This document shows, in pieces, positions 9,035-25,462 of a stretch of DNA of 64,000 bases. How positions within the stretch are numbered: position 1 is the first letter of the stretch; each line of letters opens with the position of its first letter. Origin of the DNA: an uncultured Planctomycetaceae bacterium. GTDB taxonomy: Bacteria > Planctomycetota > Phycisphaerae > SM23-33. The notes under the pieces were generated by a model, which did not search any database, had not been told where the DNA came from, and saw only the letters and a list, made by a program, of their open reading frames with translations. Made by a program: the position numbers and the translations under genes. Location of the stretch: positions 18,020 through 82,019 of the forward strand of contig CAYNZP010000009.1 in assembly GCA_964401835.1 (NCBI GenBank), in the 5' to 3' direction.

Positions 9035-10033
9035 ATGATCTCACGCGTCCATAGCAGCATTCTCCAGGGCATCGAAGCTGTTGGCTGTGAAGTGGAAGCC
9101 GACGTTGCCCGGGGCGGAATGGGAGAACTCAAACTCGTCGGGCTGGCAGAAGCTTCCGTCAAGGAGTCCGTCTCTAGGATACAGGCTGCACTAAGAAACA
9201 GCGGCTATCGCTGGCCGGGGCCCAAGGTGACGATCAATCTTGCCCCTGCCGACGTGCGGAAAGACTCTGCCGCATTCGATCTTCCTATTGCCATTGCTGT
9301 CAGCATTGCTGGGGGAATTTTTGCCACCGAGAAGATCGACGACTATTTGCTGATTGGCGAACTCGCCCTTGATGGCCGCATCAGGCCAATAAAAGGTGCA
9401 CTCGCCACCGCCATGCTCGCAAAGCGGACCAACTATCGAGGAGTAATCGTTCCAGTCGACAATGCAGCTGAAGCGGCCGTCGTCGAAGGCTTGGACGTGA
9501 TTCCCGTACGGTTCCTCGCAGATGCCGTCGGATTTTTGACCGATGAATTGCCCATCGAACCCAAATTTCTGGACCTTGAAGACACCTTTAATATCGCCTC
9601 TGCATATGATGTCGATTTCGGTGACGTTCGCGGGCAGGAGTCTGCCAAGCGGGCCCTTACCATCTCCGCTGCCGGCCATCACAATGTCATCATGATAGGC
9701 CCGCCGGGCACCGGCAAGACAATGCTCGCCAAGCGGATGCCGACAATACTTCCGCCGCTCACATTGGATGAGTCTTTGGAAACAACTCGTGTCTACTCCG
9801 CACGAGGCCTGCTTGAACCGGGCGACTCTCTGGTGGTATCCCGGCCGGTACGCACGCCGCACCACTCCACCAGCGCCCCTGCCCTCATCGGCGGTGGCAG
9901 CGTGCCCCAGCCCGGCGAAGTTTCGCTGGCCCATCATGGCGTTTTATTTCTTGATGAGTTTCCCGAGTTTGCCCGCGCCACACTTGAGATGATTCGCCAG
10001 CCGCTCGAAACAAGTATAATAATTTCTATATAA
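9035..10033 (+). pseudogene. comM: comM/yifB (Mg-chelatase-like AAA+ ATPase) N-terminal fragment, disrupted by island insertion
   Basis: Lon-like N-domain, Walker A ([12 protein letters not shown]) and Walker B ([10 protein letters not shown]). Reading frame ends abnormally ([12 protein letters not shown]) exactly where GC content drops. Confidence 0.85.
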
Positions 10034-10356
10034 GATTTTAGGGGCATTTCATATTTAGAATTCAGCCAAGTTACTTAGAAAAACGAACAATATTTTATAG
10101 AAAGTGCCTTTTCTTAATTTAAAATCCGGCATAGAATTAAATTTGAAAATTAGATATTAGTCTAGCTAGCATTTGTCGTTTCGGAAAACTGCGATATTTT
10201 CTTGGGGACATGGCGATGCATAGGTGGACTCCCGCAATGGGAGTTCGCTGATGAATCCTGTCCCCAGGCTGTCGCAGGCCTTCCGGAAGGGTAGTAATTG
10301 GCGGCTCCCCTTCTTCATAAGGGGGCCATTCCTAAACAAACGCAGAAAGGGGTAAG

Positions 10357-10965
10357 GTGATGAAAACAACAATCTTCAGCTTTTGCATATGTTTTGTAAT
10401 TCAACAGGTGTGTGCTGCGCCAACGTATTTGTCTTCAACCGGCCATTCCTACGAGCCTATTGCCATACTTCACCCCTTTGGTGAAGGTTATACATGGTAT
10501 GAAGTTCGAGATTTGGCCGCAACTAGCACCTATCTAGGTGTTCAAGGACATCTGGCCACTATAACATCCGCTGAAGAAAATCAATTTGTGGCAAATCTTT
10601 GCGATGCTCTTGGGCATGACACGTTCTATTGGCTCGGAGGCTATCAGCCAGAAGGCACGCCTGAGCCAAACGACGGGTGGCAGTGGGTGACAGGAGAATC
10701 TTGGACCTATGCCAATTGGAAAGCTGGCGAGCCAAACGATGCAGGAACCTTTGGTGTTGAAGACCACGTAGGAATAGTAGGCTCAAGCGACCAGGGACTC
10801 CTTGGGCAATGGAATGACATGTATGCAGGAGTTAATCCCGACCGGAATTGGAGCAGCTATGTTATTGAATACCCCGTTCCAGAACCAGCAACGTTTTCAT
10901 TATTCGCATTAGGTGGAATTGGATTGATATGGCAGAAAAAGGCCAGATTGAAGGCCCAATTATAA
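10357..10965 (+). CDS. Secreted C-type-lectin-domain protein with PEP-CTERM anchor
   Basis: Signal peptide. CTLD-like motifs (GHLATITSAEENQFV, WLGG, WQWVTGESWTYANWKAGEPND, WNDMY). C-terminal VPEPATFSLFALGGIGLIWQKK. Confidence 0.65.
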   Translation: MMKTTIFSFCICFVIQQVCAAPTYLSSTGHSYEPIAILHPFGEGYTWYEVRDLAATSTYLGVQGHLATITSAEENQFVANLCDALGHDTFYWLGGYQPEGTPEPNDGWQWVTGESWTYANWKAGEPNDAGTFGVEDHVGIVGSSDQGLLGQWNDMYAGVNPDRNWSSYVIEYPVPEPATFSLFALGGIGLIWQKKARLKAQL

Positions 10966-22582: not shown

Positions 22583-22965
22583 TCACAAATCACTTCCTTA
22601 ATTATCTTATAAACATCTATATTTTCAGGGTTTGAAACCCATCCTCCTATTTTAATATTGTACTAAACGTTTCAAATTTTCGAACCAAACCTGCTCCTAC
22701 ATTAATTCATAACTTTCCTTCATTAATATAATTACACCAATACTTTTGTTTTTAGCTCATTTTTTCCAGATTTTTCTGGCCAAACATCAATTTAAGAGCC
22801 AGAAAAAACTCTTGCATTAATATATTATACTGAAACGAACATTCCTCGTGACAAGAAAATTTTCATGTTTTAACATCTTTTAATACAAGCTTTTATATCT
22901 TTTTAGTCACTATTGTTGTTCAAATACTATTTGCTTGAGTATTTGCTTTTCTATATAATACAAAT

Positions 22966-25080
22966 ATGACTAAAGCATTTTTAATGACAAGAGTAAGTAC
23001 CGAAGCGCAAGCCGACGTTGGCGAAGGCCACAGTGCCCAGTTACATGCCTGCCAAACCATCGCAAAAAGTAACGGCTTTTCAAACACTGAACATGTTTCG
23101 GAAACGATTTCTGGATTCACCGAAAATATTGATGACCGCCCGAAGTTGGCAAAAGTTTTAAATGAGGCTCAAGCAGGCGACATTCTCATCTGGGACAAGT
23201 CCGACCGTATTGCCAGAGACAAAAAAGCGAAAGAATCAATTCTTGATGAAATGGCAAAAAAAAGGCTTCGCTGTATTGTTGGCGGAACAGAATATGATTT
23301 AACCAATGAAGAACACCGCTTAATTTTAACGCTATTCGGGGGCTTCGATCATTACATGGGCCGAGCCCTTGTAGCTCGTATGAAATCCGGTAAAGAAGCA
23401 CGCCAACGCAAGGGTGGAATCATTTACACTAACGCCCCTTTCGGATTGACGTATCAGCCTCCCAAAGACTCGAAAAATTGGGAAGAGCGAACCTTTGTAA
23501 TTAATCCCACCGAAGGCAAAATCGTAAAAAAGATTTTCGAAAAATATCTATCAGGTTGGTCACAAGAAAAAATAGCTGATTGGCTTAACCAACAAAATAT
23601 AACCACAAGGCGTGGTCGAAGGTGGACGGGCCATAAAATTAGCAATTTGTTGAAGAATCCCATGATAGCTGGACGGGTTTATGCCAATCTTTATAGCTAT
23701 GCCCCCGGCACTCGAAGCCGAAAAATGAATCCCCAAAGGGATTGGCAATTCGTCAAATACATAGGCGAGATAGTTCCGTGGTCAGACTTTGGACGAGTGC
23801 AACAAAGATTAGAGCGCAATCTCCCACCGCATCGTCGAAACTCGGGCGATACATCCAAACAGAAAAAAGGACGAACTGCGAAAGACAGATATTTTCTTGC
23901 AGACCGCTTAAGCTGTGGAAAATGTAATGGCAAAATGGGATTGATGGGCGGAACGAAAAAACCGGACGGCGAATACGTCCGTTATTACAAATGCTCGTGG
24001 AGCAGGAGTACCCGTCGAACTCGGGTACAAGGGAAGGATTGGTGCGAATCATCGGGAATTTTTGCCGACCACGCTGAATTTCTTATTTGGCACTTTGTCC
24101 GTAAGGTCTTTTTGAATCCGAAAGGTTTTTTCAGCGATATACTAAAAGGTAACCCCGCAAAGGCCGAACTAATAAATGCAAAGCAGGAACTACAGGGTTT
24201 TGAAAGTAGGCTTGATACAGTAAATTCAAAAATCGAAAAAGCTATCGACATGCTTCTCGAAACTGAAAAAGGCTCTGCTCGTGAAGACACTTTAAATGCT
24301 CAACTTAAGAAACTCGAAAAAGACCGCGATTCAATTAAAGAACAAATCGCTCGGCAGTCCGGTATTGTTGTGGGGATTGAACAGTTTGCAAATCAGTTAG
24401 ATTTTGTGAAAGACAATAAAGAAGCATTGAATGGAATCCAAGTTGTAGCAAGGCGAGTTATCGATGATTTAAATTACGAGCAACGAAAAGAATTAGTTAA
24501 TGCCGTACTGGGAAATTTAACATTCAAAGTTGAAACAATCAGTAAAGAAGAATGGAAAACTTACCGAAAATGCCCTAGTGGGCAATTTGGAAAGGACTTA
24601 TACGTTATTTTAAGGGGCGTTGAGAGAATTCCTACTGAACCGCCGAAAACGAGGTTAGAGGCAATAGAACAGACGGTCTACGAAAGTAGTTTATCCGACC
24701 TGCATAAAATTCCATCCGTAGGCTGTGCCTTCAACCCTAGGGCAAAAGCACGTGGACAGGCCTTTAAACTTGTTCCGCAAGGCCGATACAATGTTCGCAA
24801 CGCTTTAAGAGATATGGCGAGATTTGCAAAAAGCCTCAAGCCCCGTATCTACAAAAAATACAGAGACTTAGATTCAACTAAAAATAATAATACTGATAGA
24901 AGACGGCTGCGTTACGATACCGCGCGTCCACAGTACGCTAAAGTTCCCGGCCCGGCTGATGCTGGTAGCTGCCATGAACCCCTGCCCATGCGGCTACTTC
25001 ACCGACCCCAAAAAGCCGTGCAAATGCTCGCCGAACCAGGTCCAGCGTTACCTGTCGCGCATTTCCGGGCCGTTGATTGA
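22966..25080 (+). CDS. Large serine recombinase (resolvase/invertase N-domain); 3' end reads through the island/chromosome junction
   Basis: TRVSTEAQ catalytic serine motif, recombinase domain, Cys-containing zinc-ribbon-like region, coiled coil. The last ~60 codons lie in high-GC host DNA. Confidence 0.8.
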   Translation: MTKAFLMTRVSTEAQADVGEGHSAQLHACQTIAKSNGFSNTEHVSETISGFTENIDDRPKLAKVLNEAQAGDILIWDKSDRIARDKKAKESILDEMAKKRLRCIVGGTEYDLTNEEHRLILTLFGGFDHYMGRALVARMKSGKEARQRKGGIIYTNAPFGLTYQPPKDSKNWEERTFVINPTEGKIVKKIFEKYLSGWSQEKIADWLNQQNITTRRGRRWTGHKISNLLKNPMIAGRVYANLYSYAPGTRSRKMNPQRDWQFVKYIGEIVPWSDFGRVQQRLERNLPPHRRNSGDTSKQKKGRTAKDRYFLADRLSCGKCNGKMGLMGGTKKPDGEYVRYYKCSWSRSTRRTRVQGKDWCESSGIFADHAEFLIWHFVRKVFLNPKGFFSDILKGNPAKAELINAKQELQGFESRLDTVNSKIEKAIDMLLETEKGSAREDTLNAQLKKLEKDRDSIKEQIARQSGIVVGIEQFANQLDFVKDNKEALNGIQVVARRVIDDLNYEQRKELVNAVLGNLTFKVETISKEEWKTYRKCPSGQFGKDLYVILRGVERIPTEPPKTRLEAIEQTVYESSLSDLHKIPSVGCAFNPRAKARGQAFKLVPQGRYNVRNALRDMARFAKSLKPRIYKKYRDLDSTKNNNTDRRRLRYDTARPQYAKVPGPADAGSCHEPLPMRLLHRPQKAVQMLAEPGPALPVAHFRAVD

Positions 25081-25462
25081 CAGAATAGATATTCACGTCG
25101 AAGTGCCGCCCGTCCCGTGGCGACAACTGCGAGGCGGCAATGGCGATGGTATCAGCTCCGCGGATATGCGCGACCAGGTAGTCTCTGCCCGTGCGATACA
25201 GAAAAGTCGTTTCAGCGGCAATGGTTCTACTACAACTAACGCTACGATGGCCAGCAAACAGGTTCGCAAATTCTGCCAGCTGGATTCATCGGGTGAATTG
25301 CTACTCAAACAGGCAATGACGGAGCTGGGCCTCTCCGCCCGCGCACATGACAAGGTGCTGCGAATTGCAAGAACCATCGCTGATATCGAAGGCGAGGAAA
25401 AAATCCAGCCGCACCACCTGGCCGAGGCAATTCAATATCGAAGATTAGACAGGAGATTGTAG
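24899..25462 (+). pseudogene. comM: comM/yifB C-terminal fragment (EDGCVTIPR...[18 protein letters not shown]...)
   Basis: Resumes the conserved YifB sequence immediately after the RQPLE motif that ends the N-fragment, in a different frame from the recombinase. Confidence 0.85.

Follow-up and report, generated by a model that had tools for sequence, protein, structure and literature searches.

The locus considered here, a 64-kb stretch of contig CAYNZP010000009.1 from an uncultured planctomycete (the window; all positions below are counted along it), raises the question of what has driven apart the two halves of its comM/yifB gene, by which mechanism, and whether the intervening DNA is still a mobile element. 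The answer that we favor, with a probability of roughly 85%, is that a 14,892-bp phage-derived integrative element, satellite-like or a strongly reduced prophage, has been inserted at positions 10010-24901 into comM/yifB of a Phycisphaerae-like planctomycete by its own large serine recombinase (LSR). The features on which this answer draws are collected in Table 1.

The initial annotation had described an island of about 14.9 kb and low GC content inserted precisely into comM, the frame of which was said to stop after the RQPLE motif near 10010 and to resume at 24899; the description holds to the codon. The gene is broken after codon 325, the last one of RQPLE (GAA, 10007-10009). Past ...EMIRQPLE the N-terminal open reading frame (ORF) runs on for 7 out-of-frame codons to a stop at 10033, and the comM frame is readable again at 24899 as GAA GAC GGC TGC (EDGCVTIP...), the gene proper continuing at 24902 and reaching its stop at 25462. 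Joining 9035-10009 to 24902-25462 yields a protein of 511 aa that matches TIGR00368, the equivalog-level model of YifB, from end to end (model positions 1-499 of 499) with 590.3 bits, above the curated cut-off of 362.4. Rejoining the halves thus restores a full-length YifB, and it is this that delimits the insert to 14,892 bp. Both halves are free of stops and frameshifts and score like intact orthologues.

Comparison with related genomes in which comM is intact, a check proposed in the initial annotation, reveals a single uninterrupted gene. A scan of genome contigs, with one genome per species, recovered 598 relatives of the rejoined protein, and in all 11 loci examined in detail (including L091 and L093) the counterparts of the N- and C-terminal parts lie on adjacent bases (e.g., 10001-10975 and 10976-11527 in L006; 9992-10975 and 10976-11533 in L091). 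Among the 120 protein relatives listed, nearly all are full-length at 69-82% identity, two covering only 81-85% of the query; the closest ones (80-82%) are full-length products of single genes, and several are named Phycisphaerae or Planctomycetes by source. The N-terminal part taken by itself is 82-83% identical to intact orthologues. Moreover, two contigs that encode relatives at 80-82% identity keep the upstream synteny of the window (SecA - GFO_IDH oxidoreductase - ... - comM), again with abutting halves. The split point falls in the most conserved stretch of ComM, RQP[LM]E[DE] being present in each of the 82 stretches taken from orthologue loci. With the element in place, the AAA+ domain of ComM is split, its Walker motifs being parted from the downstream parts of the AAA+ module, and, judging from ComM biology in proteobacteria, the helicase is presumably inactive.

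The inserted DNA is foreign and phage-related. Its GC content is 41.1% vs. 51.4% in the flanks, the window being otherwise host-like at about 51%, and the discontinuity that had been predicted at 10.02 and 24.89 kb is sharp, with 500-bp intervals giving 0.411 ± 0.046 in the insert (n = 29) and 0.514 ± 0.039 in the flanks (n = 98; Mann-Whitney p = 6e-14). In tetranucleotide usage the insert correlates with host segments at 0.43-0.55, and host segments correlate with one another at 0.88-0.96; GC content at third codon positions (GC3) is 0.25-0.43 in the island genes and 0.61-0.64 in comM. Neither of the two findings named in the initial annotation as refuting it, separately conserved comM fragments in a relative or a lack of this discontinuity, was thus made. 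An abrupt change in GC content and a metagenomic origin are also what one would expect of a chimera of assembly or binning, in which an AT-rich phage contig had been joined to a planctomycete contig. However, both junctions lie inside one codon-exact gene split, and they recur in independently assembled contigs from different samples: a 213-kb contig of JGI 3300009128 is 100% identical over 18.6 kb spanning the left attachment site (attL), the element, the right attachment site (attR) and the flanks, and two ENA assemblies of different samples (ERZ23498668 and ERZ23498658) contain one junction each, one contig ending inside the element with attR and the other with attL. We regard a chimera as effectively refuted. 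Two further JGI samples contain internal fragments of the element with one mismatch each.

The manner of insertion is indicated by the ends of the element. Neither long terminal direct repeats nor a 5-bp target duplication bound it, and attL and attR share GAA only (10007-10009 and 24899-24901). With no long direct repeats and nothing beyond GAA in common, a serine rather than a tyrosine integrase is to be expected. The att sites of serine integrases are characterized by a 2-bp non-palindromic core with imperfect inverted repeats on either side. The predicted empty site (attB), joined from the host halves, reads ...GCCAGCCGCTCGAAGACGGCTGCG..., and the predicted circular junction (attP), joined from the element ends, reads ...AATAATACTGATAGAAACAAGTATAATAAT.... 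When dyad symmetry was scored around every dinucleotide (±10 nt) of the two rebuilt sites, the maximum fell on the same GA in both (attB 9/20, with a perfect CAGCCG...CGGCTG block; attP 14/20), and we infer that strand exchange takes place at this dinucleotide. The shared motif that the initial annotation had noted at both junctions, ATAATAAT, is present at 10016-10023 and 24884-24891, each copy 7 nt from the crossover GA; the window contains five copies on both strands (2.0 expected). Given this exact symmetry about the GA, the two copies can be taken as the two arms of attP. The sites accordingly show the imperfect inverted repeats and the core-only sharing that are typical of serine integrases. 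Insertion driven by the 201-aa tyrosine recombinase that is also encoded in the element was rejected, given that this gene is internal and lacks a core-binding domain and that the ends lack direct repeats.

An enzyme of the expected class is encoded at the right edge of the element, where an LSR had been reported in the initial annotation, and its ORF reads into attR. The Pfam matches are significant for the Resolvase (2.2e-20) and Recombinase (6.4e-22) domains and reach 24.2 bits for Zn_ribbon_recom, just below the cut-off of 25.3. In an alignment of 16 sequences, the residues R9, S11, R81, and R84 are invariant, as are C317, C320, and C360 of the zinc ribbon, with C343 nearly so (at least 90%). 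The AlphaFold model (mean pLDDT 77) has long helices at 396-483, and Foldseek aligns it over about 570 columns with full-length serine integrases (9dxf; Bxb1, 9iu2; PhiC31, 9rah; E-values from 6e-19 to 5e-13), the matches including a complex of a serine integrase with a recombination directionality factor (RDF). The protein thus combines a catalytic domain bearing the Ser and Arg residues with the Recombinase, zinc-ribbon, and coiled-coil regions of an LSR, to which a C-terminal extension of about 130 aa is added. Because the ORF crosses attR, its stop codon depends on the state of integration: the integrated form ends at 25080 (704 aa), the last 59 or so residues being read out of frame from comM DNA, and the circular form would have 655 aa. 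Gene callers gave the protein 698-704 aa, and its relatives end near the 655-aa end point.

The clade to which this LSR belongs is rare and divergent. The profile search that the initial annotation had recommended, performed exhaustively with HMMER over 1.84 billion representatives, gave 13,820 LSR-like matches but only five at E ≤ 1e-30, each standing for one cluster at 50% identity; the other listed matches are at most 30% identical. In a phage collection no LSR match exceeded 26% identity, and IMG/VR, searched with the LSR and with its alignment, yielded no relatives. Two small early genes of the element, h78 and h204, have homologues beside related LSR genes, the former upstream of the LSR in L089 and the latter divergent from the LSR in L002 (766-3652), a metagenome contig of 66% GC. 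In L002 a homologue of the staphylococcal-nuclease-like (SNase) protein of the element (64% identity) is encoded 287 bp downstream of the LSR (49% identical). Since the LSR relatives keep h78, h204, and SNase as neighbors, the element belongs to a small conserved family. Gene order in L002, and the orientation of its SNase gene, are as expected if a related element, one without the lectin and zinc-ribbon genes, were read across its attP junction in a circle or concatemer.

Table 1. Features of the interrupted comM/yifB gene and of the element inserted in it (positions in the window)
Feature	Positions	Strand	Evidence and remarks
comM/yifB N-part	9035..10009	+	codons 1-325; ChlI + Mg_chelatase 1-135/207 (Pfam)
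attL	9988..10030	.	host half-site ...CGCCAGCCGCTC, crossover GA 10007-10008, element half-site A-ACAAGT-ATAATAAT
Secreted C-type-lectin-like protein with PEP-CTERM tail	10357..10965	+	Lectin_C 3.6e-6, PEP-CTERM 9.8e-6; GC 0.47
Zinc-ribbon/coiled-coil membrane protein, cargo	11125..12030	-	Zn_ribbon_4 1.5e-7; GC 0.33, lowest of the island
Secreted staphylococcal-nuclease-like protein	12111..12917	+	SNase 8.9e-24; 64% identical copy next to LSR in L002 (tblastn)
Hypothetical protein, 153 aa, N-terminal hydrophobic segment	12934..13395	+	no family match
Hypothetical protein, 168 aa	13605..14111	-	no family match
Scaffold-like ORF, 61 aa	14389..14574	-	corresponds to first ~44 residues of ~300-aa pre-capsid protein (tblastn, proteins of L098/L100/L107/L108)
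XkdF-type (Peptidase_S78_2) protein, 116 aa	14567..14917	-	Pfam 5e-27; PHROG head maturation protease
Conserved capsid partner, 167 aa	15004..15507	-	33-59% identical to gene directly after capsid gene in L098, L100, L107, L108
HK97-fold major capsid protein	15524..16615	-	Phage_capsid 3.9e-50; TIGR01554 1.3e-51
Hypothetical Cys/His-rich protein, 96 aa	16835..17125	-	weak PHROG match only
Tyrosine recombinase, 201 aa, catalytic domain only	17245..17850	-	Phage_integrase 3.1e-31; XerA/Xer/invertase sub-threshold (NCBIfam)
Hypothetical protein, 244 aa	17962..18696	-	no family or PDB match
Replication protein, PrimPol + PriCT_1 + D5_N + P4-family helicase	18854..21043	-	Pfam; TIGR01613 268 bits; PHROG DNA primase 1.4e-140
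Terminator-like hairpin, 15-bp stem	21091..21127	-	just upstream of PrimPol gene, inside 96-aa ORF 21108-21398
Early operon, four small hypothetical proteins (96, 108, 78, 204 aa)	21108..22582	-	78- and 204-aa genes conserved next to LSR in L089, L002
Divergent control region, 26-29% GC	22583..22965	.	between early operon and LSR gene; three TCCTnCATTAAT-like repeats
Large serine recombinase	22966..24901	+	~645 aa encoded by the element; Pfam Resolvase + Recombinase + Zn_ribbon_recom
attR	24879..24921	.	element half-site ATAATAAT-ACTGATA, crossover GA 24899-24900, host half-site AGACGGCTGCG
comM/yifB C-part	24902..25462	+	codons 326-511, DGCVTIP... to stop; Mg_chelatase 131-204/207 + Mg_chelatase_C (Pfam)

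With respect to the remaining gene content, the recombinases, primase, capsid protein, and XkdF-like protein that had been named in the initial annotation are backed by Pfam, NCBIfam, and PHROGs, the recombinases being the LSR and a tyrosine recombinase and the primase a PrimPol-helicase. Coding sequence makes up about 85% of the element, and none of the major ORFs among its 17 is broken. One long leftward operon issues from the control region and comprises, in this order, the genes for four small proteins, the replication protein, the 244-aa protein, the tyrosine recombinase, the 96-aa protein, the capsid protein and its partner, the XkdF-type protein, and the 61- and 168-aa proteins; the left arm carries the SNase-like nuclease, the 153-aa protein, the zinc-ribbon protein, and the PEP-CTERM lectin.

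We detected 34 relatives of the capsid protein at 39-51% identity, and the four that were examined are encoded in phage-like contigs; in all four a scaffold-like gene of about 300 aa precedes the capsid gene and a homologue of the 167-aa partner follows it, with connector- and tail-like genes after the partner in the three longer contigs (the fourth, L107, ends shortly after it). One of them, L108, also encodes a portal and a 384-aa XkdF protein adjacent to it, of which the 116-aa protein of the element matches only residues 265-376. The 61-aa ORF, which was also gene-called in L001/L095, is either a truncated remnant or a mini-scaffold, and the 167-aa partner might, questionably, be a decoration or head protein. 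A search of IMG/VR with the capsid protein returned no relatives.

The tyrosine recombinase is FimB/XerA-like in size, and its R..HxxR..H..Y motifs are readable. A pair of 19-nt inverted repeats that could delimit an invertible segment around this gene and that of the 244-aa protein (17039-17057 and 18709-18727, 16/19 complementary) was dismissed, being like 38 chance pairs in AT-rich DNA. For nine hypothetical proteins Pfam gave nothing usable at E ≤ 5, and neither did PHROGs, PADLOC, or a PDB sequence search for the subsets that were submitted to them; a small-terminase-like identity of the 244- and 204-aa proteins, considered on account of the motifs GGPGRGHKK and GGRRPK, was dropped as no model supported it. 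The only PADLOC match of the SNase-like protein is to the SNc domain. The lectin bears a PEP-CTERM signal, which marks the cargo as adapted to exosortase-bearing hosts. The GC content of its gene is near the host level, and PEP-CTERM genes, though unrelated ones, also occur immediately upstream of comM in relatives; a host origin of the lectin gene was nevertheless rejected, since only the PEP-CTERM tail resembles those genes.

Two observations concern the control of the operon. The terminator-like hairpin may separate the early from the replication genes, and the 96-aa ORF in which it lies was omitted from the gene calls of two of the four assemblies and may not be real. In the control region, copies resembling TCCTnCATTAAT(ATA) at 22695, 22716, and 22810, together with a 13-nt inverted repeat (22768-22780 and 22798-22810), are candidate operators.

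Taken together, these data lead us to propose that the LSR recombines attP, which overlaps the 3' end of the LSR gene, with an attB located in the ComM motif RQPLE-DG. Judging from serine-integrase chemistry, an LSR tetramer would bring attP and attB into synapsis, cleave both with a 2-bp stagger at the GA, and religate them after a 180-degree rotation of subunits; integration would be unidirectional, its reversal requiring a directionality factor. As LSR recombination is conservative, excision by the LSR together with such a factor would restore comM exactly. The excised element would then replicate with its PrimPol/P4-type helicase and, if it is still transmissible, would obtain portal, terminase, and tail from a related helper phage, a dependence suggested by the fact that only the capsid protein, the partner, the XkdF domain, and a scaffold fragment have been kept. 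It is likewise the lack of a portal, terminase, tail, or lysis gene that leads us to describe the element as satellite-like or as a reduced prophage. An intact LSR, replication gene, and capsid gene, intact att arms, the undecayed comM halves, and a coding density of about 85% all point to function. Current mobility, dependence on a helper, and loss of ComM function are inferences.

Several results weigh against this interpretation. The attP junction was not found, the exact attP 26-mer having no match in IMG/VR, and all five metagenome occurrences of the element represent the integrated form or internal fragments, so that mobility is not demonstrated. An empty attB of the same species was not found either, the best intact ComM among 5.8 billion proteins being 82% identical. 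No RDF was recognized with Pfam or PHROGs, and no portal, terminase, tail, or lysis genes with Pfam, PHROGs, or tblastn searches with the structural genes of related phages. Two genes of the head module (XkdF and scaffold-like) look truncated compared to their phage homologues, as they would after decay. Furthermore, none of the contigs of the LSR relatives (L002-L005 and L088-L090; 1.4-3.7 kb) carries comM, which leaves the specificity of the clade for this gene resting on a single element. Finally, a function of ComM in the branch-migration step of natural transformation has been established in Vibrio and Acinetobacter (cited in PMC12378983), not in planctomycetes.

What kind of element resides in comM today can accordingly be read in different ways. 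We take seriously, at somewhat less than even odds, the possibility that it is a phage satellite, that is, a capsid-encoding, helper-dependent parasite of planctomycete phages that integrates by the mechanism described above. Such a satellite would replicate with its own primase-helicase, build or remodel a capsid with its own capsid protein, partner, and mini-scaffold, and borrow portal, terminase, and tail, details that we hold as guardedly as the reading as a whole; the helper might, with a similar degree of reserve, be a phage with a capsid protein 45-51% identical to that of the element. A length of 14.9 kb, the combination of an integrase and a P4-family primase-helicase with virion genes limited to a capsid gene and, after it, a protease domain, the high coding density, and the intact ORFs are all in accord with this reading. 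The nearest relative of the primase-helicase in IMG/VR (34% identity) is found, moreover, in a 10.7-kb contig of cfPICI-like order, in which a P4-type primase-helicase is accompanied by an HK97 capsid, an S78 prohead protease, a portal, and a Rep3-like gene (L101, IMGVR_UViG_3300001865_000138), and the phage-like contigs in which relatives of the capsid protein and partner occur with portal, connector, and tail-like genes could represent helpers. However, the absence of a portal, a small terminase, a head-tail adaptor, and any Sid, Psu, AlpA, or Stl marker means that the element fits no defined satellite family; no helper was identified, no packaged or circular copy was found in IMG/VR, and the truncated XkdF and scaffold genes could be debris. 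The more ambitious version, in which a functional, capsid-encoding Planctomycetota satellite with a serine integrase hijacks its helper by means of capsid, partner, and a scaffold mimic of 61 aa and, by residing reversibly in comM, toggles a recombination or competence helicase of the host, strikes us as unlikely. If it were true, the element would be the first satellite described for Planctomycetota as far as our searches show, and its architecture would lie outside the four defined families.

The truncations acquire a different meaning if the element is a decaying, immobile remnant of a once-complete temperate phage that lost most of its structural and lysis genes by deletion and rearrangement and left comM permanently inactivated, a plausible history to which we would subscribe only tentatively. 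XkdF is reduced to 116 residues from about 384, and about 44 are left of the roughly 300 in the scaffold-like protein; the order capsid, partner, XkdF', scaffold' differs from that in the phage contigs; portal, terminase, tail, and lysis genes are gone, so that the element is no complete temperate tailed prophage; identical integrated copies occur in every sample examined; and neither an empty site nor a circle has come to light. In contrast, the LSR, the PrimPol-helicase, the capsid protein, and the tyrosine recombinase have kept their full length and catalytic residues, the att half-sites show symmetry and no damage, and both the integrity of the comM halves and the coding density speak against decay. 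The block h78-h204-LSR-SNase, furthermore, is conserved in relatives at 22-64% identity, which implies selection on the element family. A regulated gene switch, akin to active lysogeny of the Listeria comK prophage or to the sigK skin element, in which programmed excision restores comM, would make sense of the exact restoration that LSR-mediated excision of an element between two intact halves would bring about, and a bias in directionality might in principle come from the LSR C-terminus, which varies with the state of integration. Any recent LSR insertion would show these features as well, however; neither excision nor a directionality factor nor any regulatory link is in evidence, and the published explanation of comM targeting is self-protection of mobile genetic elements against curing by transformation (PMC4774983, PMC12378983); we therefore deem a switch very improbable. 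An integrative element delivered by its own LSR, whether a satellite or a reduced prophage, remains the reading that we prefer.

Outside the element, a second stretch of low GC content (25463-26500; 0.40-0.42, GC3 0.40) lies directly after the comM stop and before murG and the dcw cluster. It encodes a Cro/C1-type HTH_26 protein (25539-25754, minus strand) and an ORF without assignment (25767-26492, minus strand), is not syntenic with relatives, and may be what is left of another mobile element. At 41001-42000, GC content falls to 0.385 in an isolated dip that contains two small minus-strand ORFs in 41100-41900, one of 115 aa and membrane-like and one of 97 aa, as well as one further copy of ATAATAAT at 41235. 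No tRNA and no Rfam family was detected in the 64 kb.

Comparison with known systems places the element within an established class. That the use of comM by an element driven by a serine recombinase appeared undescribed, as had been suggested initially, does not hold in general: according to Durrant et al. (2022; PMC10083194), Mg-chelatase/comM homologues are the commonest target of site-specific LSRs, 12.4% of which insert there, and competence genes are enriched among LSR targets in general. As in the LSR elements described there, the LSR lies at the edge of the element, the insertion is inside the YifB/ComM coding sequence at a conserved motif, and the att core is very short; the LSR of the window differs in belonging to a very small clade, in its C-terminal extension, and in its planctomycete host. 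According to a second source (PMC9203015), the sr1WO phages of Wolbachia integrate into a Mg-chelatase gene with a serine recombinase, such a prophage splitting a gene named 'magnesium chelatase' (WD0721; equated with comM here by name) into halves that flank it; unlike the element in the window, these are full tailed prophages of an alphaproteobacterial endosymbiont, and those recombinases of Wolbachia phage WO that the phage collection contains share only about 25% identity with our LSR. The claim of novelty stands for the phylum, as we found no report from Planctomycetota, and a literature search combining planctomycetes, prophage, and serine recombinase returned nothing relevant. The Acetoanaerobium phage ANDSL2_ph1 (PP197248.1; L105, 15550-17710) resembles the element in that the 3' end of its LSR gene (546 aa) overlaps the att region in comM sequence, and is dissimilar in being a complete 36-kb phage of a clostridial host, isolated from culture supernatant, with an LSR that is 21% identical. 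The comM fragment in this phage is 186 aa long (Mg_chelatase profile 1-161) and ends in AAMNPCPC, 26 codons downstream of the site used in the window; LSRs thus use more than one position in comM.

The initial annotation had also invoked the AbaR islands of Acinetobacter as an example of comM as an insertion hotspot. The target gene is indeed the same, as is the presumed inactivation of ComM, and beyond this AbaR is an analogy only: AbaR/Tn6019-Tn6022 are Tn7-like transposons, not driven by a recombinase and typified by TnsA/B/C-like genes, terminal inverted repeats, and a 5-bp target duplication, that break comM near residue 285, whereas the element lies at 325/326 and has no 5-bp duplication, with no transposase or Tn7-type ATPase detected by Pfam among its 17 ORFs. 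With cfPICI and P4-like satellites the element shares a size of 10-15 kb, an integrase, and a P4-family primase-helicase, with cfPICI also its own HK97 capsid and protease genes, and with both the absence of tail and lysis genes. It differs from them in that its integrase is a serine rather than a tyrosine recombinase and in the lack of portal, small terminase, head-tail adaptor, AlpA, Sid, Psu, and Delta. Of a cfPICI it thus has an integrase (serine), primase-helicase, capsid, and XkdF, with portal, connectors, and small terminase not detected, and with a P4-like satellite it has only the P4-family helicase domain in common (TIGR01613); it belongs to neither type. The position of attP recalls that in Mx8, where attP lies within the 3' end of the integrase gene intP so that integration changes the integrase C-terminus; Mx8 Int is a tyrosine recombinase, whereas the change seen here, 655 vs. 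704 aa, affects a serine recombinase.

Nothing in the choice of target gene, the class of enzyme, or the mechanism thus departs from what is established, and what is new is confined to the LSR lineage and the host phylum. Since no target of such recombinases is better known than comM, the element is a clean but ordinary example, although one of textbook quality for natural integration by a serine integrase, with a 2-bp core, symmetric att arms, and an attP inside the integrase gene. Its LSR, for which both attP and attB have been predicted, is a candidate orthogonal integrase and could help somewhat in the genetic engineering of planctomycetes, a group in which such work is difficult. Other elements known to target comM include, besides the Tn7-like AbaR, CRISPR-guided transposons and tyrosine-recombinase elements in cyanobacteria, and site-specific comM elements also occur in Aggregatibacter, Mannheimia, Francisella, Pseudomonas, and Vibrio. 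The present element adds one more phylum to those in which mobile elements converge on comM and lends support to the view that mobile elements generally gain from the inactivation of ComM.

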